From contig NZ_FUWK01000031.1 of NCBI RefSeq assembly GCF_900167395.1, positions 3,594 through 35,593 on the forward strand: a stretch of DNA of 32,000 nucleotides, given 5' to 3'. Positions 6,596 through 26,285 of the stretch are shown here, piece after piece. The notes beneath the pieces were generated by a model. That model was not told the origin of the DNA. It saw only the letters and a program-made list of their open reading frames with translations, and ran no database searches. Origin of the DNA: Nitrosomonas europaea (GTDB taxonomy: Bacteria > Pseudomonadota > Gammaproteobacteria > Burkholderiales > Nitrosomonadaceae). The stretch's first letter is position 1. Each line of letters begins with the position of its first letter. The translations under genes were made by a program, and so were the position numbers.

Positions 6596-6696
6596 GGATA
6601 GGTTCTTTAAAACAAATTTTTGATAACCATGATCGAAATACCAACGATTCAATCATGACTAAAGAATCTGCTGAAGGCGGAGACAGCCTGCGGTGA

Positions 6697-7440
6697 TCAG
6701 GCCGCAGACCGATTGAGAAAGTCAGTTTCGGAGTTGTGGCAATCACCCCGGGCAAGGGTTTCCACTGCCTTGCCGAAAGTGACCAGATCAGAACGCTCCA
6801 GCATGACGCAGTTTTTGCCGGTACGCTGACAATAGCGTCTGACGGTGAAAAAATCCTCATGATTGATACAGTCAACCGGGCAAATGATGCTGTCTACACG
6901 AGCGAGCAGGGCAAGCAGGCATTCACTGTTATCCTGTGCACCGCCACGAAACACCATGAAATGTCCCCCGGCAGCTTCAATCAACTGATGGTAATTCGGA
7001 TAGAGTGCAGCACGCCCACCGATACACAGGACAGACTGGCCCGCCAGATGATGACTGCTTTTCAGACGATCAATGGCCAGATAAGCATGATATTGATGCG
7101 GCAGGCCTGTTCTGATCCAGCGTAAATCCTCGTCATCAGATACTTGGGGGAGATGTGTGTCAGTACGGCTGTCGATCTGAACTTCAGTGTGAATAGAGTT
7201 TGCAGGTGAACGCCGGGTTGTATTCGCGGAAACAGTACCAGGCAAGGCCATACGGACCAGGTGATAAAGGTGCTTCAGCCGTGATTCCAGCTCTCGCCCC
7301 AGTTTCAGTGTGCGTTGTTTGTAGTGATGGAAAAGCGAATTGCAGAGGATTTCATTCTGATAGATTCCGGACAGTTTACCGGGATGGAGTTGCGCACCCT
7401 GATATGCCGGCTCCAGTACTGTTCTTTGGAAGAATTTCAT
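6697..7440 (-). CDS. DUF2325 domain protein (uncharacterised)
   Basis: The C-terminal about 95 aa (VLCIGGRAALYPNYHQLIEAAGGHFMVFRGG...VDSIICPVDCINHEDFFTVRRYCQRTGKNCVMLERSDLVTFGKAV) matches my memory of the DUF2325 pattern and is paralogous to the C-terminus of 11937..13256. The start is uncertain: ATG 7440 (MKFFQ) or GTG 7503. Confidence 0.7.
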   Translation of the reverse strand: MKFFQRTVLEPAYQGAQLHPGKLSGIYQNEILCNSLFHHYKQRTLKLGRELESRLKHLYHLVRMALPGTVSANTTRRSPANSIHTEVQIDSRTDTHLPQVSDDEDLRWIRTGLPHQYHAYLAIDRLKSSHHLAGQSVLCIGGRAALYPNYHQLIEAAGGHFMVFRGGAQDNSECLLALLARVDSIICPVDCINHEDFFTVRRYCQRTGKNCVMLERSDLVTFGKAVETLARGDCHNSETDFLNRSAA

Positions 7441-7592
7441 GATCGATTCCGTATCAGAAAAAAGGCTGGCTTGCCCGGGAGGAGGGGGCTGGCTTGCCGT
7501 CACAAATCACTGGAAGAGGAGAGAGAACTGCCAGTGATTACCAGGAAAGTTGATGTTTGTCAGCGTGAGAGTACATCATGCAGGTTTACGGA

Positions 7593-7816: not shown

Positions 7817-7835
7817 GAGAATGATTATCATTATA
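7817..7835. promoter_or_regulatory. Fur box upstream of hemP
   Basis: GAGAATGATTATCATTATA matches the classical consensus GATAATGATAATCATTATC at 16 of 19 positions. It lies 27 bp upstream of the hemP start in an AT-rich spacer. Confidence 0.75.
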
Positions 7836-10135: not shown

Positions 10136-11857
10136 TTAACGACCAAGTGCCTCTTTGTGCAGATTGATCCCCTGACGAATTTGTTCATCTACCCATTGAG
10201 TAAATAAGGGGTGGGGGGCAAAACCCTCACCCAGTTCGAATTCCAGTCCGGCAAGGAACCGCTTTTCCGGCCCGACGGAAGTGGTACGGGTAGGGATGAC
10301 GATCACCCTGTCACCTTGCTTGCTGGCTTCGGTGACCATGGCTCTTACTTTTTTGACCCAGGGTGCCCGTTTGTCCGGCCAATCCTCACGCCAGGTGGCA
10401 ACTTTGAATGCCTTGAATTTCTGGCCTCCCTGATCATGCATCTGGCTGGCAATGCTGTTGAGTTTCTCCAGCCATTCATCATTTTTCCGATCATCCTGAG
10501 TGCCGTGTGCGGTCAGAATCACTGTTTCTCTGGCCGGATCTTTGGAGAGTGCCAGTACGCGATCGAACAATGCACTGGCAAACAGGGGGTTGTCTTCGTA
10601 GCCGCCTGTCCAGATAACCGGCAGAGACGTCAGGATTCTGGGAACCGGTGTGCTGGATTTTGCATGTCCCCCATGCCCTCCATGGCTGCCGTGTCCACTG
10701 TTGTTGTCATGTATGTGGTCGTCCTGATTTTCGATATCCAGACCGGCCAGATAACCGATTTCATTGCGATAGGAGCTGCGGCTGGCAAAGGCGCTGACAA
10801 CAATGGCTGCTTTTGCGCCGCGCTGTTCCAGTTTGTGCAGGGCACGTTCGATCGTGTATGGATCCGCCATGGAAAAGGCAAATTCGATTTTGTAGCGTTT
10901 CATCAATGGCTCTACCGCTACGCGCAGATTTTCATTCCAGTGAAAGTCGGAGCCATGAGCAAACAGGATGACACCGGTATCTTCTTCGGCCAGAGGCAGA
11001 TTGCGGCTGGCTTCGCGCTCCATCCACATGGCCAGATGCTGTGGTTCGATCTCGAAGTGATTGAGTGCTGCGTTTTCAGGCAACAGCCGTTCCAGCCGTG
11101 ATTCGAGTGACATCATGCTGTCGTATTTGGGGCCGAGGGCGAATGCAATCACCTGATTTTTATTGTTTTTGGTAGCCGTGCCCAAAGATGACAATGCAGT
11201 GGCAAGCTGCTGTTTTGTCTTGTTGCCATAACTTTCCGGTTCTTCGTCTTTTTGTGCTTCCAGAAGAATCAGAGAGTTGATCGAACGAAAACTGACTCCC
11301 TGTGATGCCTGTTTGACAATGCGCATCCAGTCGTCATACATCGCCCGTCGGTGAGTATCGTTCTGTGCCCCGTAACCCACTACCAGCAGATGTTGCTGAG
11401 CGGTATGCTGCATGCCGCGCAAGCGGGTGGCGAGTGCCTCGACAGCGAAATAGCTTTCTCCGTAAGGTTTCGTGAAAGTCACAGGGATCGTCTGGTTTTC
11501 TTCCGTGACCAGTGTGCGGATGAGCTGATAGCGCGGTTCTGCAGCAGAAATGAATAGTGGCAGTACGACGATACGGCCTATATTCTGCTGGTGCAGGCTG
11601 GCGAGACCGGATTGCAGCGTTTGCCGGGTGCGCTCGTCAGTAACAAAGACCAGTGCAGCCGGGTGATTGGCTGAGAACGATGCAAAAGCATCACGGATTT
11701 CTTCATTACCGACAAATCCCCGGTCAGCTGCAACTATCAGGAAACCGGTCTGATCGGCCGGTTTCAGTTCGGCCGCGTGCGCCGATCCTGCAAGCAGAGC
11801 GAACATCAATAAATAAAACCATGCAGCGGTTTGGATTGTTTTAATCCAGAAAAGCAT
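10136..11857 (-). CDS. Secreted protein with four CbiX/SirB-like (class II chelatase fold) modules and a His-rich linker
   Basis: Start is the ATG at 11857 after GGAGGA. Signal peptide MLFWIKTIQTAAWFYLLMFALLAGSAHA. The two C-terminal modules keep the chelatase HG(S/T) motif (VILFAHGSDFHW; VILTAHGTQDDR) and a CbiX-like tail (GEGFAPHPLFTQWVDEQI). The two N-terminal modules are degenerate (IVAADRGF; LVVGYGAQND). The linker is DDHIHDNNSGHGSHGGHGGH (10664-10717). Confidence 0.75.
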   Translation of the reverse strand: MLFWIKTIQTAAWFYLLMFALLAGSAHAAELKPADQTGFLIVAADRGFVGNEEIRDAFASFSANHPAALVFVTDERTRQTLQSGLASLHQQNIGRIVVLPLFISAAEPRYQLIRTLVTEENQTIPVTFTKPYGESYFAVEALATRLRGMQHTAQQHLLVVGYGAQNDTHRRAMYDDWMRIVKQASQGVSFRSINSLILLEAQKDEEPESYGNKTKQQLATALSSLGTATKNNKNQVIAFALGPKYDSMMSLESRLERLLPENAALNHFEIEPQHLAMWMEREASRNLPLAEEDTGVILFAHGSDFHWNENLRVAVEPLMKRYKIEFAFSMADPYTIERALHKLEQRGAKAAIVVSAFASRSSYRNEIGYLAGLDIENQDDHIHDNNSGHGSHGGHGGHAKSSTPVPRILTSLPVIWTGGYEDNPLFASALFDRVLALSKDPARETVILTAHGTQDDRKNDEWLEKLNSIASQMHDQGGQKFKAFKVATWREDWPDKRAPWVKKVRAMVTEASKQGDRVIVIPTRTTSVGPEKRFLAGLEFELGEGFAPHPLFTQWVDEQIRQGINLHKEALGR

Positions 11858-11936
11858 ATTTCCTCCGGGTTGTGAATCGTAAAATGTATTGATGGATAAG
11901 GGTTCGTCTGTCATGCAGGCAGACTGCGCCGTAGTG

Positions 11937-13256
11937 TTATGTCGTGGTTTCAACTGTATCGACGGGAGAACTGTTGATACTGGCCTGGCCTGATGTGATT
12001 TTTGTCAGTGCTGCTGCAAAGCTGGAAACACCGGTACCCTTGAACAGCAGGCAGGGTTTATGCCCCAGCCGGCAAAGCCTTTTGACCTGATAGTAAGCGG
12101 CGTGACTGACGTAATCAGTCGGGCAGATCACTGCTGCAGCGCCATAGATCATTTCCGGCAAGCGCGAAAGTGCATCTTCCTGGCCGCCATCATGGTGTGA
12201 TAATTTGAGGCCAAGCTGTCTGGCAAGTGTGCGGTATTGCGGCAGCAGCGTGGACCGGCCGCCTACGCACAGAATGCACTCGTAAGCAGCCATTTTCGTT
12301 TCGGTTGTATCCGCTGTTTCTGTATCTGTGGTGCTGCCAGAATTGAGGGTCAGCAGCAGATTTTCCAGTGTATCCCGCTCGACGCGAAGGGTATCGCGTT
12401 CGTGATAGAGCTCGGTCAGGTTGTGGCAGGCATTTTTGAGTGATTGCTTGAGATCATCGGCCTGTGCTGCTTTGATCTGCAGCTGCTCGTTTTCCACCGT
12501 TAGTTGCATCAGGCGCTGACCCATTCGCAGTATGGCCTGGCCTGATTCCAGTGTTTCCAGCCGTTGGCGGGTGGTCTCGCTTTCTCGCCGGGATTGCTGC
12601 AACTGCTTGATTTCAGCCGCGGCCTGTTGCAGTTGCTGGCGCAGGCGCGATTCGGTCTGTACGTGCTTCTCTCTGATCTGTTCCAGTTGCCCGGCCAGTT
12701 CCTTCAGCATTTGTTCTGCCTGGTTGAGCCGGTGCTGCGTGGCTGACAGCTCGGCAACCGCTTCATGCATGTGCATGTGAACCCTGTCATGGATCTGCTC
12801 TCTGCCTTCGGAGCTGATCCGTTTGTGGGTGAGTGCTGCCCATAATGGACCGGCTATTCTTTCGTTGGTAAAACAGGTTTCCCAAAGCGCCAGCACCTCG
12901 CTGTCGGTTTTGGCGGCGTCGAACTGTTTAATGTGGCTTTCGTACAATCTGTCCAGATATTTATGAATCGTTTCCGATACGACGTTTCTGGAGGTTACGC
13001 GGCAGACTGCTTCAACGTGCAGATCGTGCGCATTGTTTATCGAAGCTTTGAAATGAAAGCGTTTGGCAAAACGCTCGAGATCCGAGGCGGGCAGACAAAG
13101 GCCGATGACAGGACAGTGATAGGTTCTGCTCAGTTCCCAGATTTTTGAACGCTTCACCGGGGGAGAAGGGGAATCGGTTACCATAATCTCGGGCGATCCA
13201 TCTCCTGCTAATAAAGCATCGATTCCCGACTGTCGCAGAATGGCAGGTGCATGCAT
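11937..13256 (-). CDS. DUF2325 domain protein with a long central coiled coil (uncharacterised)
   Basis: Start is the ATG at 13256 after GAGGAGA. The Gln/Leu/Glu-rich region of roughly 160 aa (from about LSATQHRLNQAEQMLKELAGQLEQIREKH... to ...ERDTLENLLLTL) looks like heptad repeats. The C-terminus ILCVGGRSTLLPQYRTLARQLGLKLSHHDGG...AVICPTDYVSHAAYYQVKRLCRLGHKPCLLFKGTGVSSF is a DUF2325-like domain. Confidence 0.75.
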   Translation of the reverse strand: MHAPAILRQSGIDALLAGDGSPEIMVTDSPSPPVKRSKIWELSRTYHCPVIGLCLPASDLERFAKRFHFKASINNAHDLHVEAVCRVTSRNVVSETIHKYLDRLYESHIKQFDAAKTDSEVLALWETCFTNERIAGPLWAALTHKRISSEGREQIHDRVHMHMHEAVAELSATQHRLNQAEQMLKELAGQLEQIREKHVQTESRLRQQLQQAAAEIKQLQQSRRESETTRQRLETLESGQAILRMGQRLMQLTVENEQLQIKAAQADDLKQSLKNACHNLTELYHERDTLRVERDTLENLLLTLNSGSTTDTETADTTETKMAAYECILCVGGRSTLLPQYRTLARQLGLKLSHHDGGQEDALSRLPEMIYGAAAVICPTDYVSHAAYYQVKRLCRLGHKPCLLFKGTGVSSFAAALTKITSGQASINSSPVDTVETTT

Positions 13257-13322
13257 ACGGTATCTCCTCGTGGTGAAAATATCAGTCTGGATCAGACAGA
13301 ATGGATTGCATTTAATACTAAT

Positions 13323-13341
13323 AATAACAATTATCATTAAC
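13323..13341. promoter_or_regulatory. Candidate Fur box upstream of the DUF2325/CbiX-like/heme-receptor gene string
   Basis: AATAACAATTATCATTAAC matches the Fur consensus at 14 of 19 positions. It lies 67 bp upstream of the 13256 start in an AT-rich stretch. Confidence 0.5.
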
Positions 13342-13411
13342 GTAATCAATTGTGTTGTGTATTGCAGCCGATTCTGCATGAATCATGTGGAGCTTCATTT
13401 GTACGGCGAGG

Positions 13412-13457
13412 TGCGACAATTTGTCGCATTTCCATCCTTTTTGGAATCGGTTATTCT
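13412..13457 (+). promoter_or_regulatory. 17-bp palindromic operator plus predicted sigma70 promoter (site A)
   Basis: TGCGACAATTTGTCGCA (13412-13428) is a perfect palindrome. It is followed directly by TTTCCA (-35-like), a 17-nt spacer and TATTCT (-10-like, 13452-13457). The downstream gene starts at 13477. Confidence 0.6.
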
Positions 13458-13476: not shown

Positions 13477-14718
13477 ATGAAGAAGTCGACCTATTCTTTC
13501 CCCACGCTGGCCGGATTCTTTCTCACACTCGCTTCTGTGGTTGCAATCGCAGCCGGGCCAGGTACCGGCGACCCAACTCAGCAACCGTCTGTCATGCAAG
13601 CCTCAAAGTCCCCAAAGACCGCACTTGCGGTGGGAGTAACACTGGATCAGGAAGGGCAGTTGTGGCTGGCAAAAGTGATTGATCAGCGCTTGCTGGTTTC
13701 CAGATCAGAAGACGATGGCAAGCATTTTTCCGAATCAGTGACGGTTACTCCTGTGCCGGAAAACATAGGCAATGATGGCGAAAATCGTCCCAAGATCCAG
13801 GTGGCACGTGATGGCACCGTGCTGGTCACCTGGACGGAGCTGCTGGCGGAAAAATATGCCGGAAATATAAAGTTCTCGCGTTCGACCGATTCAGGTCGGA
13901 CGTTCTCAGAGCCAATCGTTCTGAACGATGATGGCCGTGTGACCAGTCACCGCTTCGATTCCCTGGCAATCGACGGAAAAGGAAGGGTGGTGGTGGCCTG
14001 GCTGGATGCCAGAGATCGTGATGCAGCGAGGGAAAAAGGGGAGGAGTTCAAGGGGGTCTCACTCTACAGCAGTCAGTCGTTCGACAATGGCGCGCACTTT
14101 GAGCCAAACCGGCAAATTCATCAGCATACCTGCGAATGCTGCCGGACTGCGCTTACCTGGACCAGCGAGGGGCCGGTCGTGCTGCTGCGAAATATTTTCG
14201 GCACCAATACCCGTGATTTTGCCGTGGCCAGCCTGGATAAAGTGGAAGAAGGTGTCAGAAGAGTCACCCGCGATGAGTGGCAGATCGACGCCTGCCCGCA
14301 CAACGGTGGCAGTCTTGCGACAGATGGCAGGGGGCAATTGCATCTGACCTGGTTCACCAGCGGCACCGCTGCACAGGGGCAGTTCTATAAACGGATCAGC
14401 GGCAACCAGGAATCGGAACCCATGGCGCTGGGTGATATGGATGCGCAGCCCAACCATGCTGCAGTGGTGGCGCATGGTGAAACCGTCATCCTCACCTGGC
14501 GCGAATTTGACGGAAACGTGTATTCCGCAAAGATGATGTTTTCGAATGACGGTGGCGAAACCTGGAGTGAGCCATGGCGCCTGATGTTGTCTGCCGGCGC
14601 AAACGATTACCCGGTACCACTCATCAGTGACAGTAAAGCTCTGGTTGTATGGAATACCGAAAATGAGGGTTTGCGGGTTTTGTCCGTTGAAAGAGTCATC
14701 AACCGATCCGACGGCTGA
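13477..14718 (+). CDS. Secreted BNR/Asp-box repeat beta-propeller protein (sialidase-fold-like) with a conserved Cys cluster
   Basis: N-terminal signal peptide. Four Asp-box-like repeats: SRSEDDGKHFS, SRSTDSGRTFS, SQSFDNGAHFE and SNDGGETWS. Motifs HTCECCR (14131-14142) and ACPHNGG (14293-14301). Paralogous to 24553..25791. Confidence 0.8.
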   Translation: MKKSTYSFPTLAGFFLTLASVVAIAAGPGTGDPTQQPSVMQASKSPKTALAVGVTLDQEGQLWLAKVIDQRLLVSRSEDDGKHFSESVTVTPVPENIGNDGENRPKIQVARDGTVLVTWTELLAEKYAGNIKFSRSTDSGRTFSEPIVLNDDGRVTSHRFDSLAIDGKGRVVVAWLDARDRDAAREKGEEFKGVSLYSSQSFDNGAHFEPNRQIHQHTCECCRTALTWTSEGPVVLLRNIFGTNTRDFAVASLDKVEEGVRRVTRDEWQIDACPHNGGSLATDGRGQLHLTWFTSGTAAQGQFYKRISGNQESEPMALGDMDAQPNHAAVVAHGETVILTWREFDGNVYSAKMMFSNDGGETWSEPWRLMLSAGANDYPVPLISDSKALVVWNTENEGLRVLSVERVINRSDG

Positions 14719-14826: not shown

Positions 14827-17379
14827 ATGAAGCAGTTCCCTCTGGCACTGATTGGCCTGCTTTGCGCCTCATCAGCCTGGGCAGCTCAAGATGTCGAACA
14901 ACAGAAACAGTTTTCCCGCAAAAATCTTTCAACACAGGCAGACAACAGTTCAGACGGAATCCGGGTATCAGGCGCAAACGGGGAGCACGCAGGGGAGCAG
15001 TTGGCGCAAGCGGCGGACGAACAGGTGCAAACCGGTAAATCGAGCAATAGTGACAACCTGAATGAACAGAAAGAGAAGGATAGTGGTGAGCCGGCTGGCC
15101 AGAATGAAACTGTTTTCAGGGAAATGGTAATTACAGGTGAAATAGAGCGGGATTCGCACTTTACTTCGCCTTCGATGCGCGTAACCCGGGCGCAGGTCGA
15201 ACAGCAGAATGCGCAAACTACCGAAGAAGTGCTCAAATACATGCCCAGCCTGCAAATACGTCAGCGCTACGTGGGCGATCCGAATGGTGTGTTGGGGATT
15301 CGCGGAGCCGATATGTTTTCAACTGCGCGCAGCATGGTTTATGCCGATGGTCTGCCGTTGCACAACTTTCTGCAGGCTTCTTTCAATGGTGCGCCGCGCT
15401 GGTCGCTGGTCGGTCCTAACGAAATCGACTCGGTTGATGTCGTTTATGGCCCTTTCTCGGCCGAGTACAGCGGCAACTCGATAGGGGGCGTTGCCAATAT
15501 CAGAACGCGCATGCCGCACAAGCAGGAATTTTACTTTGAAGGCAGCCTGTTCATTCAGCCCTACAAGAATTACGGGGAGGATAAAGGAACATTCATTGGT
15601 GACCGGCAGTATTTTTCCTACGGCAACAGGATTCAGGACAAGTTTACGGTGTTCCTGGCTTACAACCGGCTGGAGGCTCAGGGTCAGCCAATGTCTTATT
15701 TTATTGATAATACCGGGTTGTCCAACGTGCCTGGAGGAACACCGGTGACGGGGGGTATCAGGACACCGGATACGCGCGGTACACCCAGTATCATTTATGG
15801 TGATACCGGTCCCGAAAAAGTGAATACTCACTTGTTCAAGGGTAAATTCGGGTACGACATCACTTCCGATCTGCAGGCGTTGTTTACCGTGGCGTATGAA
15901 GAGCGTACCCGCAACCAGAACCATCCGAGCAACTACCTGTATACGGCGAACGGGGATTATTTCTGGGGAGGGAATGCGCCTACCTGTAATTCGGTTGCCA
16001 CCTGTTCGACTCCGGGTAATGCTTCTCTGGATGGCACACGCTTCGATGTGGTGCGCAGTGGTTTCGGTGAAAGTCGTGACAAGCGTGAGACGCTGAATCT
16101 GGGTTTGTCGCTGCGCGGTGCGCTGACGCCCGACTGGGATGTCGATACCACATTCAGCTATTTCGATGTGTTGAAGGATATTCGTGCGACGGCGTTTTTC
16201 AATCATGCCGATCCGGGCAATACCGGTGCCGGGCAATTGCAGGATTTCCGCAAATTCAACTGGTGGAATTACGATCTCAAGCTGAGTACGCCCATGCTGC
16301 TGGGTTACGACAAACTGTCGTTTCTGGCCGGATACCATTTTGACCAGTACAACCTCAGTTTCCGGCAATATAGCCTGACCAGTTATGAAGATCTGACCCG
16401 GGGTGCATTGCAGGCCAACCGCAATAATGATGGCCGCACATCGACTCATGCGATCTTTGCCCAATCCATGTTCCGCTTCATGCCGGACTGGGATATTACC
16501 GCCGGTGTGCGTCAGGAATGGTGGGAAGCAAGCAAGGGAGTCGCCTCCAATGTGGCCGTGCCCGATCGCACCGAAACAGCCACTTCTCCGAAGGTTTCAC
16601 TGGGGTATGAGCCTGGACAGTGGAAATTCCGCTATTCCTTCGGGCGTGCGCACCGTTTCCCGGTGATTGCAGAGCTTTTTCAGTCACTTGGTACACCTAC
16701 CAGTATTCTGGTTGCGAATGCGACGCTCAAACCTGAAAATGGCGTGCATCATAATTTTATGATGGAGTACGGGTTACCGAAGGGTTATGTTCGTGTCAAC
16801 GTATTTCGGGATGACATCAAGGACGCCATCCGCCAGATCACTTCCGCCTCGGGAGCACTTACAACCAGCGCTTTCCAGAATATCGGTGAAGTTGGTACAA
16901 CCGGTGTGGAGCTGATCTTCGAACAGCGAAATATTCTGGGCTCACGGTTCGATTTTATGTTCAACGGTACCTGGATGAACTCAAAAGTGGAAGACGGGCC
17001 GGTCGTGAGATTTACCGAATCAACCGGCGTGCCTGCCAACTACAGTCTGACCGGGAAACAGGTCATTCGTCTGCCACACTGGCGAGTCAATGTTTTCGGT
17101 ACTTACCATGTGACGGATGCCTGGGATGTTTCCCTGTCCGGCCGCTATACCAGCGATTCCTATAATGATCCTGATAACAGGGACTATAAGAACAACGTAT
17201 TCGGTGCCCAGAGCGATTTCTTCTTCATGGATTTCAAGACCAGCTACCGGTATCGGTTCAACAACGGGCTGAAAAGCCGATTCTCATTCGGTATCAGCAA
17301 CCTCAACAACGACAAGGCCTGGGTATTTCATCCCTATCCGCAGCGTACCTATCTGCTCGAAGCTGCGTTCAGTTATTGA
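14827..17379 (+). CDS. TonB-dependent outer-membrane receptor with a long low-complexity N-terminal extension
   Basis: Signal peptide MKQFPLALIGLLCASSAWA, about 85 aa of Gln/Glu/Asp/Asn/Ser-rich sequence, then TonB-box-like ETVFREMVITG, a plug (LGIRGADMFSTARSMVYADGLPL) and a C-terminal strand LLEAAFSY. Confidence 0.9.
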   Translation: MKQFPLALIGLLCASSAWAAQDVEQQKQFSRKNLSTQADNSSDGIRVSGANGEHAGEQLAQAADEQVQTGKSSNSDNLNEQKEKDSGEPAGQNETVFREMVITGEIERDSHFTSPSMRVTRAQVEQQNAQTTEEVLKYMPSLQIRQRYVGDPNGVLGIRGADMFSTARSMVYADGLPLHNFLQASFNGAPRWSLVGPNEIDSVDVVYGPFSAEYSGNSIGGVANIRTRMPHKQEFYFEGSLFIQPYKNYGEDKGTFIGDRQYFSYGNRIQDKFTVFLAYNRLEAQGQPMSYFIDNTGLSNVPGGTPVTGGIRTPDTRGTPSIIYGDTGPEKVNTHLFKGKFGYDITSDLQALFTVAYEERTRNQNHPSNYLYTANGDYFWGGNAPTCNSVATCSTPGNASLDGTRFDVVRSGFGESRDKRETLNLGLSLRGALTPDWDVDTTFSYFDVLKDIRATAFFNHADPGNTGAGQLQDFRKFNWWNYDLKLSTPMLLGYDKLSFLAGYHFDQYNLSFRQYSLTSYEDLTRGALQANRNNDGRTSTHAIFAQSMFRFMPDWDITAGVRQEWWEASKGVASNVAVPDRTETATSPKVSLGYEPGQWKFRYSFGRAHRFPVIAELFQSLGTPTSILVANATLKPENGVHHNFMMEYGLPKGYVRVNVFRDDIKDAIRQITSASGALTTSAFQNIGEVGTTGVELIFEQRNILGSRFDFMFNGTWMNSKVEDGPVVRFTESTGVPANYSLTGKQVIRLPHWRVNVFGTYHVTDAWDVSLSGRYTSDSYNDPDNRDYKNNVFGAQSDFFFMDFKTSYRYRFNNGLKSRFSFGISNLNNDKAWVFHPYPQRTYLLEAAFSY

Positions 17380-19893: not shown

Positions 19894-19939
19894 TGCGACA
19901 ATTTGTCACATTGTTATGCCCTTTCTCCCGCTTTATGAT
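19894..19939 (+). promoter_or_regulatory. 17-bp palindromic operator plus predicted sigma70 promoter (site B)
   Basis: TGCGACAATTTGTCACA (19894-19910) differs from the perfect palindrome at one position. It is followed directly by TTGTTA (-35), a 17-nt spacer and TATGAT (-10, 19934-19939). Confidence 0.6.
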
Positions 19940-20054
19940 GGGTGCCCTGCAGTAACTGCAATCACTTTAAGGGTTTCATAACAGGGATAAAAACATGAAG
20001 GGAACAAAAAGGTTTGAGCAATCGCGACAACATCTGCTCAAGGCTGGGGATGCC

Positions 20055-22118
20055 ATGATCAGAAAACCGCTGGCGGTTGCGATGGTGGGTGTGCTGGCGG
20101 GCATGACATCGGTATGGGCGCAGGCAGAAAGTAAAAAGGAACCGGTGCAACTGGAAACAATCGAGGTCGTGGCATCCGGGCAGGGGTCGCTTACGGTTCC
20201 AACGCTGGTTGAGGCGCAGCATGAAATGCGCAAAATCCCGGGCGGAGCAAATATCATCGACAGCGAATCTTATGCCAATGGCCGGGGTTCGACACTGCAG
20301 GATGCGCTGGGGTATTCGCCGGGAGTGTTTGTTCAATCCCGTTTCGGTGCCGAGGAAGCGCGTCTGTCAATTCGCGGTTCCGGCATCCAGCGTTTCTTTC
20401 ACTTGCGCGGCATCAAGATTCTGCAGGATGGTTCGCGGGTGAATCTGGCTGATGGTGGCGCGGATTTTCAGGTGATCGAGCCACTGGCAGCACGCTATAT
20501 CGAAGTTTATCGGGGTGCCAATGCATTGCAGTATGGATCGACCACGCTGGGTGGTGCGATCAATTTCGTCACGCCCACCGGCTACGATGCTGAACGTTTC
20601 CGCGCACGTGGTGAGGCAGGCAGCTTTGGTTATAACCGCCTGATGCTTTCTTCCGGTGGTGTGCATGGTTCTCTGGATTATTTTGCCAGTGTTTCCCGCT
20701 ACAGTCAGGATGGTTTCCGTGACTGGTCGGAGCAGGAAAACTGGCGCATGTTCAGCAATGCCGGGTATCGAATCACGCCCGATCTGGAAACCCGTTTTTA
20801 CCTGACCTATACCAAAACCAATTCACAATTGCCAGGCGAGCTGACCAAAGCAGAACTGAAAGACAACCCGAAGCAGGCAAATTTCTTTAACAGCAATATA
20901 GCGCGGTACAAGCGGGATTTTGATTTGATCCGCGTGGCCAATCGTACTGTGATGAAATTGGGTGAGGCCCAGCAACTGGAATTTTCCGCATTCTATGCGC
21001 ATAAAAAAGTATGGCACCCGATTTATGTGGTGATGGAGCAGCCTTCGCATGATTACGGCCTTGGGTTGCGCTATATCAACGAAATGCCGATTGCCGGCTG
21101 GCGTAACCGGTTTGTGGCCGGTTTCGAGCCAAGCTGGGGCAAGGTGATGGATAACCAGTTCGTTAATATCAATGGTGAGGCTGGTCCGCGAATTCACAAA
21201 TATGATCAGGATGTCAGCAGTTATACGGTGTATGGAGAGAATCAGTTTTACCTGCTGCCGGAACTTGCACTGGTGGTGGGTGCCCAGTACACCAACATGA
21301 CACTCAAACAGAAAGATCTGCATACGGGTGATCCGCGGCAGAAGAAAAACTACGAACGCTTCACCCCCAAGGCAGGACTCATCTATGACCTGAATCCGGA
21401 AATTCAATTCTTCACCAACGTCAGTACCAGTTTCGAGCCACCCAGTTTTTCCGAGCTGGCCAGTTGGCAGGCGACACCGGTACTGGCCAGTGCCCAGCGC
21501 GCACTGACCTTCGAAGTGGGAAGCCGGGGCCGTTTTGGTATCGCCGAATGGGATGTTGCATTTTATCGCTCACATGTGCGCAATGAATTGCTTGCCCGCG
21601 TGGATCCAGTGTCCCGTTTCCCGATAGGAATGGTCAATGCGGATAAAACCGTGCATCAGGGAGTGGAATTGGGTCTGGATATGGAACTGGCAAAAATGCT
21701 TTACCTGCGCCAGATGTATACATTCAGCGATTTCAAGTTTGATGGCGACCCGCTTTTCGGAAACAACCAGCTGGCCGGTATTCCGCGCCATTTCTACAAG
21801 GCGGAGCTGCTCTATCGCCATCCTGCCGGCTATTATGCCGGTCCGAACGTGGAATGGTCACCCGAGAAGTATTATGTGGATCATGCCAATACGTTGTCTG
21901 TCGATACCTATGCGCTGCTTGGATTCAAGCTGGGTAAGCGCAACAAAACCGGCTTTTCCTGGTTTGTCGAGGGGCGTAACCTGACTAACCAGAAATATGC
22001 GGCGACGGTTTCCGTAACCGACATCGCGGGGGTTGGTGCCTTTGGTGGCGCAAACTCGGCCTTGTTCTTCCCGGGAGATGGCCGCTCCTTCTTTGCTGGT
22101 CTGGAGTATCGGATGTAG
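20055..22118 (+). CDS. TonB-dependent outer-membrane receptor (paralog B)
   Basis: Signal peptide MIRKPLAVAMVGVLAGMTSVWAQA, TonB-box-like LETIEVVA and a plug (ARLSIRGSGIQRFFHLRGIKILQDG). The ORF is open from ATG 19995, but the first 20 codons are not conserved with paralog C, so I prefer ATG 20055. It ends ...FFAGLEYRM. Confidence 0.88.
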   Translation: MIRKPLAVAMVGVLAGMTSVWAQAESKKEPVQLETIEVVASGQGSLTVPTLVEAQHEMRKIPGGANIIDSESYANGRGSTLQDALGYSPGVFVQSRFGAEEARLSIRGSGIQRFFHLRGIKILQDGSRVNLADGGADFQVIEPLAARYIEVYRGANALQYGSTTLGGAINFVTPTGYDAERFRARGEAGSFGYNRLMLSSGGVHGSLDYFASVSRYSQDGFRDWSEQENWRMFSNAGYRITPDLETRFYLTYTKTNSQLPGELTKAELKDNPKQANFFNSNIARYKRDFDLIRVANRTVMKLGEAQQLEFSAFYAHKKVWHPIYVVMEQPSHDYGLGLRYINEMPIAGWRNRFVAGFEPSWGKVMDNQFVNINGEAGPRIHKYDQDVSSYTVYGENQFYLLPELALVVGAQYTNMTLKQKDLHTGDPRQKKNYERFTPKAGLIYDLNPEIQFFTNVSTSFEPPSFSELASWQATPVLASAQRALTFEVGSRGRFGIAEWDVAFYRSHVRNELLARVDPVSRFPIGMVNADKTVHQGVELGLDMELAKMLYLRQMYTFSDFKFDGDPLFGNNQLAGIPRHFYKAELLYRHPAGYYAGPNVEWSPEKYYVDHANTLSVDTYALLGFKLGKRNKTGFSWFVEGRNLTNQKYAATVSVTDIAGVGAFGGANSALFFPGDGRSFFAGLEYRM

Positions 22119-22254: not shown

Positions 22255-22300
22255 TGCGACAATTTGTCGCATTGTGATGTCATTCTGCCAGGCTTAAGAT
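22255..22300 (+). promoter_or_regulatory. 17-bp palindromic operator plus predicted sigma70 promoter (site C)
   Basis: TGCGACAATTTGTCGCA (22255-22271) is a perfect palindrome identical to site A. It is followed directly by TTGTGA (-35), a 17-nt spacer and TAAGAT (-10, 22295-22300). Confidence 0.6.
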
Positions 22301-22405
22301 TGGCAGCGTGCAGTAATTGCCAATACTAATAATTCCAGAGGGAAGAAAATGAAGGAAAAGAAGGTTAAACAAGCTGGGCTTTATGAGTCATCGGGTGGAG
22401 AAATC

Positions 22406-24475
22406 ATGGCCCGGAAGCCGCTTGTCATTGTGCTGGCAGGTGTATTGGCAGCTATGGCAGCGCCATTGGCGCAAGCTCATGAGGTTGACGAGCCAGTACA
22501 GCTTGAAACAATAAAAGTGACTACATCTAAGGATGATTTACCTCTTACTGTGCCAAGTCTGCCGGAAGTGCAACAGAAAATGCGTCAGATTCCAGGGGGC
22601 GCGAATGTGATTGACAGCGAATCTTATGCTACCGGCCGTGCCTCGACGTTGCAGGATGCATTGGGTTATTCACCGGGTGTGTTTGTTCAACCTCGTTTTG
22701 GTGCTGAAGAAGCACGCCTGTCAATTCGTGGTTCCGGTATTCAGCGTACTTTCCATATGCGCGGTATCAAACTGTTGCAGGATGGCTCCCGGCTGAATCT
22801 GGCCGATGGCGGAGGGGATTTTCAGGCAATCGAGCCGCTGGCCGCACGCTATATCGAGGTATACCGGGGAGGTAATGCGCTGCAGTTTGGATCGACCACA
22901 CTGGGTGGTGCGATCAATTTCGTTACCCCTACCGGTTATGATGCCGAACGTTTCCGTGCGCGTGGTGAGGCAGGCAGTTTTGGTTATAACCGTCTGATGC
23001 TCTCTTCCGGCGGTGTGCATGGCTCGCTGGATTATTTTGCCAGCGTTTCCCGCTACAGCCAGGATGGTTTCCGTGACTGGTCAGAGCAGGAAAACTGGCG
23101 CATGTTCAGTAATGTGGGTTATCGCGTCAACTCCGATCTGGAAACCCGTTTTTATCTCACTTATACCAAAACTGATTCACAATTGCCGGGTAACCTGACC
23201 AAGGCACAGTTGAGAGCCAATCCCAAACAAGCGAATGCGGTTAGTCTGGCTGGTCGGCAGAAGCGGGATTTTGATCTGATCCGGGTGGCCAATCGCACTG
23301 TGCTTAAGCTGGGAAATAGCCAGCAACTGGAATTCTCCGCATTCTATTCACACAAGAAGTTGTGGCATCCGATCTTTCAGGTGCTGGATCAGCCATCGCA
23401 TGATTATGGCCTGGGGTTGCGCTATATAAATGAGATGCCGATTGCTGGCTGGCGCAACCGTTTTGTAGTTGGTTTCGAGCCGAGCTGGGGCACTGTTATG
23501 GATAATCGCTTCTTCAATAATGGTGGTAGAGCGGGTGCACGTACAGCCAAGTTTGATCAGAGTGCCAGCACTTATGACGTTTATGCGGAAGATCAGCTGT
23601 ACGTATTGCCAGAACTGTCACTGGTTGTGGGTGCGCAGTACAGTTATACGACACGTAAACAAAAGGATCTGTTTGGAGCAGGCGCCCAGGATAGAAGCAA
23701 GAACTACCAGCGCTTCACTCCCAAAGCAGGATTGATTTATGAGCTGAATCCGCATATTCAGTTTTTCAGTAACGTCAGTACCAGTTTTGAGCCTCCCAGT
23801 TTTTCCGAACTGACTGCCGGGCCGGTGGTTGCTCCGGTATTTGCAAAAGCTCAACGTGCGATCACATTTGAAGTTGGTAGCCGAGGTCATTTCGGTATAG
23901 CCGAATGGGATGTGGCGCTGTATCGGGCGCATGTACGTAATGAGTTGCTTGCCCGAGTGGATCCTATTACCAGTTCTTCACTGGGTACGGTCAATGCGGA
24001 TAAAACAGTGCATCAGGGGGTTGAACTGGGCCTTGATATCGAGCTGGTGAAAATGTTCTATTTGCGCCAGATGTACCTGTTCAATGATTTCAAATTCGAT
24101 GGGGATGCTTCTTTCGGTAATAATCAGTTAGCCGGCATCCCACGTCATTTCTACAAAGCGGAACTGACTTACCGTCATGCTGATGGATACTACGCCGGTC
24201 CGAATGTAGAATGGTCACCTCAGAAATACTATGTGGACCATGCCAATACGGTATATGCCAATTCCTATGCGCTGCTGGGTTTCAAAATCGGTAAACGGAG
24301 TAAGAGTGGATTTTCCTGGTTTGCAGAGGCACGTAACCTGACTGATCAGAAATACGCAGCTACTACAGGCGTAACAGATGTGGTTAAGTACAATAATGCG
24401 GGTGTTCTTCAGGATCAATTTTTCCTTCCAGGAGATGGACGCTCTTTCTTCGCGGGTCTCGAATATCGGATGTAG
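22406..24475 (+). CDS. TonB-dependent outer-membrane receptor (paralog C)
   Basis: Signal peptide MARKPLVIVLAGVLAAMAAPLAQA and TonB-box-like LETIKVTT. By eye it is highly similar to receptor B over the full length. The ORF is open from ATG 22349, but ATG 22406 (after GGTGGAGAAATC) is preferred by comparison with the paralog. It ends ...FFAGLEYRM. Confidence 0.88.
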   Translation: MARKPLVIVLAGVLAAMAAPLAQAHEVDEPVQLETIKVTTSKDDLPLTVPSLPEVQQKMRQIPGGANVIDSESYATGRASTLQDALGYSPGVFVQPRFGAEEARLSIRGSGIQRTFHMRGIKLLQDGSRLNLADGGGDFQAIEPLAARYIEVYRGGNALQFGSTTLGGAINFVTPTGYDAERFRARGEAGSFGYNRLMLSSGGVHGSLDYFASVSRYSQDGFRDWSEQENWRMFSNVGYRVNSDLETRFYLTYTKTDSQLPGNLTKAQLRANPKQANAVSLAGRQKRDFDLIRVANRTVLKLGNSQQLEFSAFYSHKKLWHPIFQVLDQPSHDYGLGLRYINEMPIAGWRNRFVVGFEPSWGTVMDNRFFNNGGRAGARTAKFDQSASTYDVYAEDQLYVLPELSLVVGAQYSYTTRKQKDLFGAGAQDRSKNYQRFTPKAGLIYELNPHIQFFSNVSTSFEPPSFSELTAGPVVAPVFAKAQRAITFEVGSRGHFGIAEWDVALYRAHVRNELLARVDPITSSSLGTVNADKTVHQGVELGLDIELVKMFYLRQMYLFNDFKFDGDASFGNNQLAGIPRHFYKAELTYRHADGYYAGPNVEWSPQKYYVDHANTVYANSYALLGFKIGKRSKSGFSWFAEARNLTDQKYAATTGVTDVVKYNNAGVLQDQFFLPGDGRSFFAGLEYRM

Positions 24476-24552: not shown

Positions 24553-25791
24553 ATGTCAGTAAAACATTTCATTACAGCCGTTTCACTTGCTATGGTTTCC
24601 ACAGTAATTCCCCTGACCGTGACTGCTGAACAACATGCGCATGATGCTAAATCAGCAAAGCCCGGCCATGATATGAATAAAATGTGGGCGGAAATGCGCA
24701 CAAGAGCAGTCGGCATGGCTGTTTCCGTAGCGGCTGATGAAAAAGGGAAATTGTGGCTGGTTCGTATGCAGGATGGCCATATCCGGGTAAGTCATTCGGA
24801 AGATGGCGGCAAGCATTTTTCTGAAGGTGTAACGGTAAACCCGCAACCTGAAGCGATTCTTGCAGAAAACCAGAACCGGCCGAAGATCGCGGTGCGTAAC
24901 GGGGTGATCGCAGTAACCTGGGTACAGGCGCTGCCGAAGGTGTTTGCCGGGAATATCCGCTTTGCCCGTTCTGTCGATGGTGGTCGTACTTTTTCCGAGC
25001 CGGTAACTGTGAACGATGATCAGGGCGAAATCAGCCATGGTTTCAGTGCCTTGACACTGGGTGACAATGGCCGTGTGACATTGACCTGGTTCGACGGGCG
25101 TGAACGTGATGCAGCTGATAAGGGTGGGCAGAAGTATGTTGGCACCACGGTTTACTATGCAACGTCGGAAGACGGCGGAGCGAGTTTTTCTGCGAATCGC
25201 AAGTTGGCTGACCATGCCTGCGAATGCTGCAGAATCGGCATGACGCTCGATTCTGATGGGGTACCGGTTGTGTTCTGGCGGCATGTGTTCGAGGGCAGCA
25301 TGCGTGATTTCGCGCTGGCACGGCTGGATTCGCAACCCAAGGTGTTGCGGGCCAGTGAGGATGGTTGGGAAATCAATGCCTGTCCTCATCATGGCGGCGA
25401 CATTGCAGTGGATGAAGCCGGTAGCCGCCATCTGGCGTGGTTTACCGGGAATCCGCAGAATCCCGGATTGTTTTACCGGCGTGCTGACGGTGAGAATATG
25501 ACCGCACCGCACGCATTTGGTGACCTTGATTTTCAGCCGGGTTACCCAGCTGTATTTGCGTATGGAAAGAAGGTTTATCTGGTCTGGCGCGAATTTGATG
25601 GCAATAATTATCAATTGATGGCCTCCGTTTCGGCTGATCGTGGCGATACCTGGTCAGCAGCTCGTGCTGTGGCAACGACCGGTGGTGCAGCCGACCTGCC
25701 AGTATTTGTAGTCGGTGCACAGAAACCACTCGTCGTGTGGAACAGTGCCAGAGATGGAGTGCGCTTCTTTAATGCAGAGGGGGATTTATGA
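24553..25791 (+). CDS. Secreted BNR/Asp-box repeat beta-propeller protein with a conserved Cys cluster (paralog of 13477..14718)
   Basis: Start is the ATG at 24553 after AAGGGA. It has a signal peptide. Asp-boxes are SHSEDGGKHFS, ARSVDGGRTFS, TSEDGGASFS and SADRGDTWS. Motifs are HACECCR (25218-25229) and ACPHHGG (25381-25389). Roughly half its residues match the 13477 protein by eye. Confidence 0.8.
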   Translation: MSVKHFITAVSLAMVSTVIPLTVTAEQHAHDAKSAKPGHDMNKMWAEMRTRAVGMAVSVAADEKGKLWLVRMQDGHIRVSHSEDGGKHFSEGVTVNPQPEAILAENQNRPKIAVRNGVIAVTWVQALPKVFAGNIRFARSVDGGRTFSEPVTVNDDQGEISHGFSALTLGDNGRVTLTWFDGRERDAADKGGQKYVGTTVYYATSEDGGASFSANRKLADHACECCRIGMTLDSDGVPVVFWRHVFEGSMRDFALARLDSQPKVLRASEDGWEINACPHHGGDIAVDEAGSRHLAWFTGNPQNPGLFYRRADGENMTAPHAFGDLDFQPGYPAVFAYGKKVYLVWREFDGNNYQLMASVSADRGDTWSAARAVATTGGAADLPVFVVGAQKPLVVWNSARDGVRFFNAEGDL

Positions 25792-26285
25792 TGCGTCGTT
25801 TACTGTTTATCTGGCTGTTGACGATAGCCGGGGTTGCATCGGCGACCGAGGGTGTACGTCCGTTTGTACTCGGAAGTATGACGCAGATTCAGGAAGAGCA
25901 TGCAGGCAAACCTTTCGTACTGTTTCTCTGGTCGCTGACATGTACTTACTGTCCAACTGAACTGAAAATGCTTGGTGAATTCAAGCAGCAGCATCCTGAT
26001 CTGAATCTGGTGCTGATTGCGGCGGATACGCCGGATGATGAGCCGGAGATCGTTTCTCATCTTGCTGATTACGGGTTGAACAAGGTCGAGCGGTGGGTGT
26101 TTGCCGAGGATATGCCGGAACGCCTGCGTTTTGAGATCGACCGGCGCTGGTATGGCGAGGTGCCGCGCACCTATTTTTATGATCAGAGCCATCAGCGTGA
26201 AGCCAAGACCGGGCTGGTCGGCCAGGAATATGTCAAGAGTTGGCTGGCGCGTGTCGGTATGGATGCTTCGTCCGCAAGCAAGTGA
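25788..26285 (+). CDS. Periplasmic thioredoxin-fold protein (TlpA/ResA/DsbE-like thiol:disulfide oxidoreductase)
   Basis: Signal peptide MMRRLLFIWLLTIAGVASA. CxxC active site in a typical context (PFVLFLWSLTCTYCPTELKML). The start overlaps the BNR gene stop (ATGA at 25788-25791), which suggests translational coupling. Confidence 0.8.
   Translation: MMRRLLFIWLLTIAGVASATEGVRPFVLGSMTQIQEEHAGKPFVLFLWSLTCTYCPTELKMLGEFKQQHPDLNLVLIAADTPDDEPEIVSHLADYGLNKVERWVFAEDMPERLRFEIDRRWYGEVPRTYFYDQSHQREAKTGLVGQEYVKSWLARVGMDASSASK

Follow-up and report, generated by a model that had tools for sequence, protein, structure and literature searches.

The stretch of Nitrosomonas europaea DNA considered here (contig NZ_FUWK01000031.1, positions 3,594 to 35,593 of the forward strand; 32,000 nucleotides, referred to in full as the window) carries two genes for exported beta-propeller proteins, which we call paralog A and paralog B. 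Both lie beside genes for TonB-dependent receptors, the gene of paralog B is followed by that of a thioredoxin (Trx)-like protein with a CxxC motif, and a palindrome, which we regard as a putative operator, recurs at their promoters (Table 1). An earlier note on this DNA had singled out a C-x-C-C and a C-P-H motif inside both propellers and had suggested that their residues form a metal site, such as Cu, Zn or Fe, or a redox-active disulfide pair.

Both translations indeed contain the two motifs: paralog A reads H217-T-C219-E-C221-C222-R223 and D271-A-C273-P274-H275-N-G-G, paralog B reads H-A-C-E-C-C-R and N-A-C-P-H-H-G-G. C222 and C273 are 51 residues apart, C219 and C222 of paralog A also form a CxxC arrangement with an embedded vicinal pair, and neither protein has any cysteine other than the four of the motifs. 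Three of the four motif positions given in the earlier note are exact, while the CECC motif of paralog B (codons tgc gaa tgc tgc) had been placed one base too early, at 25218-25229; the identity of the two proteins, judged by eye at about 50%, amounts to 46% over 363 residues in a BLASTP alignment (E = 7e-120). The likely start of paralog B is ATG 24553, which has an AAGGGA Shine-Dalgarno sequence; the start in the list of open reading frames (ORFs) is TTG 24526.

Table 1 Features of the window that bear on the propeller proteins, their partners and the putative operator (positions in nucleotides of the window).
Feature	Position	Strand	Evidence
Paralog A, Sec-exported BNR/Asp-box beta-propeller, 413 aa	13477..14718	+	ORF, translation, Pfam, AF2
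C219-E-C221-C222 motif, paralog A	14131..14142	+	Translation; Cys columns in 118 representatives
C273-P274-H275 motif, paralog A	14293..14301	+	Translation; family conservation
Paralog B, Sec-exported BNR propeller, 412 aa from ATG 24553	24553..25791	+	
C-E-C-C motif, paralog B	25219..25230	+	
C-P-H motif, paralog B	25381..25389	+	
Periplasmic TlpA/ResA/CcmG-like thiol:disulfide oxidoreductase, 165 aa, signal peptide	25788..26285	+	
Active-site motif C52-T-Y-C55 of the reductase	25941..25952	+	Both Cys invariant in 70 sequences
TonB-dependent receptor partnered with paralog A	14827..17379	+	Pfam Plug and TonB_dep_Rec_b-barrel
TonB-dependent receptor of the same regulon, paralog of the receptor at 22349..24475	19995..22118	+	Pfam; operator upstream
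TonB-dependent receptor, first gene of the paralog B operon	22349..24475	+	Pfam, NCBIfam (below cut-off)
Putative operator TGCGACAATTTGTCGCA, 49 nt upstream of the paralog A start codon	13412..13428	.	
Putative operator, second copy TGCGACAATTTGTCACA, upstream of the receptor at 19995-22118	19894..19910	.	
Putative operator, third copy (perfect), upstream of the receptor/paralog B/reductase operon	22255..22271	.	

Conservation of the motif and nature of the propeller family

Short motifs shared by two paralogs that are 46% identical prove little, so that the wider family is the real test. Two sets of relatives were used, a close set of 241 proteins with 46-99% identity from two word-indexed searches and a distant set from HMMER, run exhaustively against 1.84 billion cluster representatives, which returned 240 proteins with E <= 1e-30; conservation in the distant set was assessed with 118 full-length representatives of 50%-identity clusters, whose median identity to paralog A is 33%. 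The four cysteines, P274 and H275 are invariant in the 241 relatives of at least 46% identity. Among the 118 distant representatives the cysteine columns are conserved at 100, 99, 100 and 100%, in an alignment where just 17 core columns reach 95% or more and the mean frequency of the top residue is 0.47. P274 is conserved at 98% in the distant set, position 275 is occupied by His in 105 of 122 proteins (about 86%), by Glu in 9/122 and by Asp in 2/122, and the middle residue of CECC is Glu in 103 of the 122. In the homolog alignment that the earlier note had proposed, the cysteines are thus not variable in the wider family, and the motif defines that family. The leading His of H-x-C-E-C-C-R, which had been listed as a retained feature, is variable: position 217 is His in 47 of 122 distant relatives only, which places H217 outside the conserved site.

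A third paralog of Nitrosospira-like genomes, 36% identical, keeps CECC and carries CPE in place of CPH. Exactly four cysteines are present in 253 of the 320 non-fused family members, and 298 of them have an even number (4, 6 or 8). Many distant members have an additional N-terminal C-x(8-12)-(H)C pair before the propeller (P0243, P0246, P0248, P0251, P0252, P0255-P0258, P0263, P0264), and short His clusters such as HGHEH or HHGSHH are common after their signal peptides. The N-terminal tails of the family are enriched in His (6.2% compared with 3.0-3.5% overall), and paralog B carries such a tail after its signal peptide (EQHAHD...GHD).

The family is found in at least 595 species genomes and, at 50% identity and E <= 1e-30, comprises about 240 clusters. 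Its hosts, mostly chemolithoautotrophs, comprise nitrifiers (Nitrosomonas, Nitrosospira, Nitrotoga), iron/sulfur oxidisers (Gallionella, Sideroxydans, Sulfuricella) and denitrifying Rhodocyclales. Of 341 N-termini, 289 show a plain hydrophobic Sec-type h-region, 13 an RR-like pattern and 17 a lipobox-like one. The propellers had earlier been called secreted; the Sec signal peptide, together with an operon that includes TonB machinery, points to the periplasm instead, and we regard the propeller as a predicted soluble periplasmic protein of a structurally uncharacterised family. From the conservation described above we conclude that the four cysteines are real and, as judged by sequence comparison, define a large, uncharacterised family of periplasmic propellers.

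The source names of the relatives ('sialidase family protein', 'exo-alpha-sialidase', 'glycoside hydrolase') would suggest an ordinary exo-alpha-sialidase or another glycoside hydrolase, in which the cysteines are incidental. Paralog A matches the Pfam family BNR_2 with 33.4 bits, barely over the cut-off, and contains four Asp-boxes (S-x-D-x-G-x-x-W/F; residues 77-84, 136-143, 201-208 and 356-363); a BNR or BNR_2 match, weak in each case (best E 2e-12), is found in 55-61 of 61 family members, and no NCBIfam model matches the propeller family. The AlphaFold2 (AF2) model of paralog A, built from a 61-sequence alignment, is all-beta with 6-7 blades (predicted local distance difference test, pLDDT, 90.5; predicted TM-score, pTM, 0.86). 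In sequence and profile searches of the PDB, sialidases match across the Asp-box turns alone (E >= 7.5e-4), and in Foldseek comparisons they reach TM-scores of 0.38-0.52 at 11-16% identity. Overall, Foldseek returned generic propellers with TM-scores of about 0.4-0.57, among which 7-bladed lectins and lyases match as well as or better than 6-bladed sialidases, and the model probably has seven rather than six blades. The 'sialidase' names therefore rest on the Asp-boxes alone, with no specific similarity beyond them, and the current annotation is almost certainly misleading. This agrees with the earlier statement that the motif is foreign to canonical sialidases: GH33 sialidases share with the family a beta-propeller with Asp-boxes and the weak BNR_2 and BNR matches, but the cysteine cluster is absent from them. 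The conserved neighbours of the propeller genes, moreover, consist only of receptor, Trx-like reductase, TonB, ExbB and ExbD, without genes for glycan use, and the mostly chemolithoautotrophic hosts also speak against a sialidase. Taken together, a sugar-cleaving enzyme appears extremely unlikely.

Three further candidates were discarded. A PqqU-like receptor and the vicinal cysteine pair, which in methanol dehydrogenase lies over pyrroloquinoline quinone (PQQ), had prompted the idea of a PQQ-dependent quinoprotein; that receptor stays far short of the PqqU cut-off, the receptors as a whole are divided among several subfamilies, no PQQ family occurs in the Pfam matches of the 61 members, and no quinoprotein is among the best 50 Foldseek matches of the propeller model. 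An iron-sulfur cluster, suggested by the resemblance of CxCC...CP to some 4Fe-4S ligand sets, was rejected on the grounds that export is of the Sec type and not by twin-arginine translocation (Tat), and c-type haem was set aside as the motif is C-E-C-C-R, not CxxCH.

Position of the motifs and partnership with a thiol reductase

According to the DSSP string of the model, CECC occupies the loop between strand 212-218, the last of blade 3, and strand 225-229, the first of blade 4; CPH occupies the loop before strand 279-282, the first of blade 5, and in blades 1, 2, 3 and 6 an Asp-box comes after the third strand. When standard propeller topology is applied to this strand order, the CECC and CPH loops would be neighbours on the 'top' face round the central axis, opposite the Asp-boxes, and the two motifs would meet in space. 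Near-invariant residues, namely R104/P105, D177/R179, R238, R246/D247, W268 and D377, are predicted at equivalent positions of the same face. The CPH block has a pLDDT of 83, the lowest of the folded core.

The start codon of the reductase gene overlaps the stop codon of paralog B (ATGA at 25788-25791, with GAGGGGG upstream), which confirms the translational coupling that had been noted before. The reductase matches Pfam AhpC-TSA with 26.4 bits, and its relatives carry the source name 'TlpA family protein disulfide reductase'. Its AF2 model (pLDDT 86) finds DsbE and DsbF of Mycobacterium tuberculosis, ResA and CcmG among the top 30 Foldseek matches and TlpA at ranks 35-47, including the TlpA-ScoI and TlpA-CoxB complexes 4txo and 4txv. 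In an alignment of 70 orthologues and fusion domains C52, C55, the cis-proline P126, D80, D118 and W121 are invariant, as is the motif W-S-x-x-C-x-x-C, and no Sco-type metal-binding His or Met is conserved. In 21 of about 120 family clusters (17%) the reductase is fused to the C-terminus of the propeller; homology of these domains reaches E = 3e-40, each has one CxxC, and the dipeptide varies (CPPC, CAPC, CGPC, CVYC, CTYC, CPHC).

The genomic context was analysed in 80 loci from 80 species. Since these had been retrieved with patterns derived from the CECC and CPH motifs, the set is uninformative on motif conservation itself. The ancestral order is TonB-dependent receptor, propeller, reductase and TonB-ExbBD: propellers of the ancestral B type have the reductase directly downstream in 54 of 57 loci, the receptor directly upstream in 42/54 and TonB downstream in 23/47, and ExbB and ExbD families each occur downstream of the propeller in 16 fetched loci. 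The A-type propellers, which are specific to Nitrosomonadaceae, have the receptor downstream in 19/20 loci and no longer have a reductase beside them. The reductase of Nitrosospira and Nitrosovibrio stands apart from the propeller and heads an operon of its own with TonB, ExbB and ExbD; in two such operons (L084 7001-9458, Nitrosospira multiformis ATCC 25196; L086 7001-9336, Nitrosovibrio Nv4) a FecR-like gene lies downstream and a gene for an extracytoplasmic function (ECF) sigma factor is divergent. At least three weakly related subfamilies (21-61% identity) are represented among the partner receptors, none of which reaches the cut-off of an NCBIfam model (PqqU 155 bits, cut-off 1200), and the receptor at 22349 has no cysteine at all. 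No inner-membrane transporter or binding protein is conserved among the operon neighbours, which fits a cargo that is used in the periplasm.

With the adjacency in 54/57 loci and the 21 natural fusions, functional coupling of propeller and reductase is well supported, and the link of the motif to the CxxC protein, here of a ResA/CcmG/TlpA-like fold, has become firmer than it was in the earlier note. A gene for a NapH/CcoG-like iron-sulfur membrane protein (Fer4_5) and one with a DsbD_2 domain lie directly upstream of the operon in one locus (L050 2578-4312); such an iron-sulfur protein is also encoded in L029 (2686-3741), and a DsbD_2 protein beside the operon in L082 (8259-8915, minus strand). 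These membrane proteins are possible electron donors of the reductase. Overall, we consider it likely that the cysteine cluster is not incidental but is a functional centre, serviced by the reductase, of a periplasmic protein that is coupled to TonB.

The simplest alternative to such a centre would be two structural disulfides, perhaps non-consecutive or vicinal, with the Trx-like protein as a folding isomerase or oxidase. Sec export to an oxidising compartment, the even cysteine counts in 298 of the 320 members, as usual for disulfide-bonded exported proteins, and the presence of the Mtb oxidases DsbE and DsbF among the closest PDB folds of the partner are in line with this idea. It is hard, however, to explain in this way why a folding helper should be fused to its client in 21 independent clusters, or why the reductase should have stayed beside TonB-ExbBD when it was split from the propeller in Nitrosospira. 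In addition, the motifs lie in loops of the active-site type beside other invariant polar residues, and the low model confidence of the CPH loop is often seen with ligand-dependent loops. Purely structural disulfides hence seem improbable.

The cysteines could also act as a purely catalytic thiol/disulfide relay without a stable metal, which reduces or cleaves an imported substrate, for instance in order to release metal from an anionic chelator. A fusion rate of 17% is typical of enzymes that are re-reduced at each turnover, C219-x-x-C222 is itself a CxxC, and C273-P-H equals the first three residues of CPHC, the active-site motif of DsbA; an anionic substrate would fit the invariant Arg and Asp residues of the same face, and DsbD_2 and iron-sulfur membrane proteins are encoded beside some operons. 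On the other hand, no candidate substrate can be named, and ResA, CcmG and TlpA ready cysteines for the binding of a cofactor or metal rather than recycling an enzyme. The relay overlaps with the copper-based reading developed below if its substrate is Cu(II); as a separate explanation we hold it to be unlikely.

A palindrome shared by the promoters

All three promoters in the window contain a 17-bp palindrome of the form 7-3-7, TGCGACA-N3-TGTCGCA, and none of 100 shuffles reached its count in the window. With up to 3 mismatches allowed, it precedes the operon in 66 of the 83 related loci, and stricter matches (up to 1 mismatch in the 14 half-site positions) are located mostly 20-300 nt from the start of a receptor or propeller gene. 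By our own estimate, about 0.3 matches with up to 1 mismatch would be expected by chance in 1.04 Mb, compared with roughly 66 observed. The palindrome is spread over Beta- and Gammaproteobacteria, where it also precedes additional receptors, and it is found upstream of the split reductase-TonB operon of Nitrosospira and Nitrosovibrio as well. We propose that the module is switched by a regulator that binds TGCGACA-N3-TGTCGCA as its putative operator.

Alternative readings of the palindrome were considered. The copy at paralog A (13408-13432), which is followed by CATCCTTTTT, scores as a terminator-like hairpin; the other two copies have no T-run. The half-sites decay independently (for example TGCGACA...TGCCACA) without compensatory change, which argues for a protein operator rather than an RNA hairpin or terminator, and no riboswitches were found in the window. 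Canonical control by Fur was rejected, since the Fur-like boxes in the window are separate and distinct from the conserved palindrome, and no Fur homologue is encoded in any of the fetched loci. N. europaea encodes a Zur-like protein and a third Fur-family protein of unknown target (PMC3050691). A literature search with the operator half-sites returned primer noise only.

A scan of metagenomes for the exact operator gave about 119 contigs, a number near our own rough estimate of chance, so that recurrent downstream families alone were used; these include receptors and a set of secreted proteins described below. A 338-aa exported family ('ADHGS(L/M)GFG...') is also encoded behind the operator (L014 464-1480, L015 4434-5450, L020 4288-5304, L112 998-2008, L120 904-1884). 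It has no Pfam match of its own and could be an outer-membrane channel of the operator regulon; a neighbouring ORF unrelated to it (L063 3330-4325) matches Phenol_MetA_deg and outer-membrane beta-barrel models. Other operator-linked ORFs (RIO kinase, RTX-like protein, histidine kinase, DUF3305, PepSY_TM) gave no clear metal signal.

On the minus strand, ahead of paralog A, two genes for DUF2325 proteins (6697-7503 and 11937-13379), one of which has a long coiled-coil-like N-terminal part, flank an iron-type gene cluster. A gene at 5600-6652 (minus strand) downstream of a DUF2325 gene and a strong Fur-like box encodes a two-domain multicopper oxidase (Cu-oxidase_3 and Cu-oxidase_2) with a signal peptide. 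The Fur-like box upstream of the DUF2325 and multicopper oxidase genes is located at 7817-7835 (17/19), and a further one at 13317-13347 (up to 15/19) in the divergent promoter that serves both DUF2325 and paralog A, on the DUF2325 side. An ORF at 10136-11953 (minus strand), which has a DUF2325 gene on one side and a gene for a TonB-dependent receptor (7910-10003) on the other, encodes a 605-aa exported protein with CbiX/ferrochelatase-like chelatase domains and a His-rich segment (HGSHGGHGGH), which may be a periplasmic chelatase or dechelatase.

Copper as the candidate cargo and comparison with known systems

The cargo of the module can be approached through neighbouring and co-regulated genes. 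Genes for Csp1-family copper storage proteins are contiguous with the operon and on the same strand in five loci (L049 2340-2816, L067 4035-4508, L083 3987-4454, L048 8894-9187, L055 11822-12178). The one in L049 lies just upstream of the operon with an operator variant of its own, and its Tat-exported product matches TIGR04401 with 152 bits (cut-off 100) and Csp1 of the PDB with E = 1.5e-20. Csp1 homologues also adjoin the operator in three metagenome contigs (L134, L122, L198). In five metagenome contigs the exact operator precedes genes for secreted proteins of about 250 aa with a predicted mature N-terminal His (AH-T/A...HGC), located in L125 (7671-8471 and 6746-7522, both minus strand), L169 (12789-13538), L181 (1061-1849), L185 (12307-13050, minus strand) and L204 (4241-5017, minus strand); downstream of those of L125 come a Redoxin/TlpA-like and a DUF3570 gene. 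One of these proteins reaches Pfam DUF1775/YcnI (37 bits, cut-off 25), and no other member does. DUF1775 uses an N-terminal monohistidine brace to bind Cu(II) (PMC8424229), a CxCC motif bridges the Cu4 cluster in periplasmic CopG, and TlpA-type reductases reduce copper-binding cysteines before metallation (PMC7558416). The His-rich N-terminal tails of the propeller family also speak for copper.

Copper thus appears to be the best-supported cargo, as suggested by neighbours and co-regulated genes, and the family most likely handles imported copper rather than cutting sugars. Nitrifiers, denitrifiers and iron/sulfur oxidisers have a high periplasmic demand for copper, which is needed for ammonia monooxygenase (AMO), NirK, NosZ and haem-copper oxidases. 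With regard to the metal site or redox pair of the earlier note, the Csp1 and DUF1775/YcnI proteins favour copper among the metals that it had named, and the cysteines may form a metal site, a redox-active dithiol or both. Our preferred interpretation is a thiol-based, reductase-serviced copper-handling site, which performs cupric reduction and/or binds Cu(I) and thereby merges these two alternatives; we put it forward tentatively, with somewhat less than an even chance of being right.

In this model the four cysteines and the His (or Glu/Asp) after the fourth one would represent the functional centre of the propeller, which would be the soluble partner of a TonB-dependent outer-membrane importer. 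The receptor would import copper, as ion or chelate, into the periplasm, where the ligand-binding face of the propeller would take it over and its thiols would reduce Cu(II) and/or hold Cu(I), similar to the CxCC motif of CopG. The propeller would then hand the copper to periplasmic acceptors, for example Csp1 or cuproenzymes. Since both the oxidising periplasm and copper reduction would oxidise the thiols, the TlpA/ResA-like CxxC protein would re-reduce the cluster with electrons from a DsbD-type membrane protein, and the whole module would be switched by the regulator that binds TGCGACA-N3-TGTCGCA. The direction of electron and metal flow in this scheme is our own suggestion.

Several points weigh against copper. 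The Csp1 association is seen in 5 of the 83 loci only, and most of the 119 metagenome matches of the operator probably arose by chance. In about 9% of the clusters Glu or Asp stands in for His275, an exchange that fits a harder metal (Zn, Fe(II)), or a part in acid/base chemistry, more readily than Cu(I). A simple Cu(I) site, furthermore, does not usually have so many invariant Arg residues nearby, and these may instead indicate an anionic chelator or substrate. Paralog A adjoins a Fur-box-like sequence and iron-type genes, and the receptors have no NCBIfam TonB-copper match among the matches listed (E 1e-20). Finally, the cysteine site could consist of two disulfides, given that the convergence of the motifs is deduced from topology.

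Some of these observations would be expected if the same redox-serviced Cys4/His centre handled another metal (Zn, Fe(II), Ni or Co), as a periplasmic metallochaperone comparable to AztD, a beta-propeller that acts in this way on zinc. Besides the exchange of His for Glu or Asp at position 275, this is consistent with the His-rich N-terminal tails, the context of TonB-ExbBD and receptor, and the Fur-box-like sequence and CbiX-like secreted protein beside paralog A; in addition, the Zur-like or third Fur-family protein of N. europaea could bind the operator (PMC3050691). Nevertheless, the metal-linked neighbours and co-regulated genes encode copper proteins (Csp1, DUF1775-like), and no ZnuABC-type, Feo or Nik relative occurs in the conserved neighbours or in the 25 commonest Pfam families of 91 flanking ORFs, although two of these ORFs match Ferritin-like, an iron-storage family. 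Furthermore, the operator is not a Fur box, and many hosts are Fe(II) oxidisers of iron-rich settings. A metal other than copper is accordingly rated as quite unlikely.

Returning to copper, the most far-reaching version of our proposal would be a new periplasmic leg of copper acquisition, in which a thiol-driven cupric reductase and Cu(I) chaperone behind a TonB importer is regenerated by a TlpA-like reductase and feeds Csp1, ammonia monooxygenase and NosZ under a copper-responsive regulator across Beta- and Gammaproteobacteria. In its entirety this picture is rather doubtful at present. If the copper proposal is true, it would provide a testable component and a regulatory motif for the copper supply of organisms that control N2O and nitrification, it would add metal binding to the uses of the BNR propeller fold, and the 17-bp palindrome would be a concrete bait for finding the regulator. 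Even if the minimal claim alone is true, that is a reductase-serviced cysteine centre coupled to TonB, it would define a new type of accessory for TonB-dependent transport. The key enzymes of the hosts need periplasmic copper. This is of relevance because the loading of Csp proteins is not completely known and the periplasmic route of copper after TonB-dependent import is unsettled (PMC7558416).

Among known systems, TlpA with ScoI and CoxB of Bradyrhizobium resembles the module in that a client dependent on reduced cysteines (plus His) has its own, dedicated CxxC protein of the Trx fold outside the cytoplasm. Here, however, the client is a BNR propeller with CxCC...CPH and not Sco (CxxxC and His) or the cupredoxin CuA, and the partner, a soluble protein whose signal peptide is cleavable, is often fused and is encoded within a TonB-dependent import operon. 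CopG (DUF411) is periplasmic as well and carries the same C-x-C-C motif, a proposed site of Cu(I)/Cu(II) redox chemistry (PMC7558416). It differs in its small Trx-like fold, its two adjacent Met ligands and its occurrence in efflux and resistance loci, whereas the present family consists of propellers without Met by the motif (HTCECCRTALTW), with a fourth cysteine and a His added, in an uptake context. No DUF411 Pfam match was found in 61 members of the propeller family, and the likeness to CopG is one of motif analogy only. As fold and defining ligands differ, the family is of neither the TlpA-Sco/CoxB nor the CopG kind.

NosA and OprC likewise import copper across the outer membrane in a TonB-dependent manner for periplasmic cuproenzymes, and thiol-mediated reduction of Cu(II) has been proposed for OprC (PMC7558416); the receptors of the present operons lack cysteines of the CxxxM-HxM type, and neither a soluble propeller nor a reductase partner is described for NosA/OprC. 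Csp1 is a periplasmic protein that binds Cu(I) by Cys thiolates and is encoded within five of the operons, but it is a Tat-exported four-helix bundle and hence a neighbour and candidate acceptor, not a homologue. In Escherichia coli the gene for the soluble periplasmic propeller YncE lies beside that for the TonB-dependent receptor YncD (PqqU), and YncE is dispensable for PQQ uptake (bioRxiv 10.1101/2022.06.07.495086). Neither YncE nor AztD is known to have a cysteine cluster or a Trx partner, and both are absent from the PDB sequence and profile matches and from the best 50 Foldseek matches of the propeller. Our searches yielded neither a Pfam or NCBIfam model nor a solved structure or publication that describes the family, the operon or the operator. 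Compared with all these systems, what appears to be new is thiol-based periplasmic metal handling with a dedicated reductase on a new fold, which is wired to TonB-dependent import and accompanied by a new regulatory motif.

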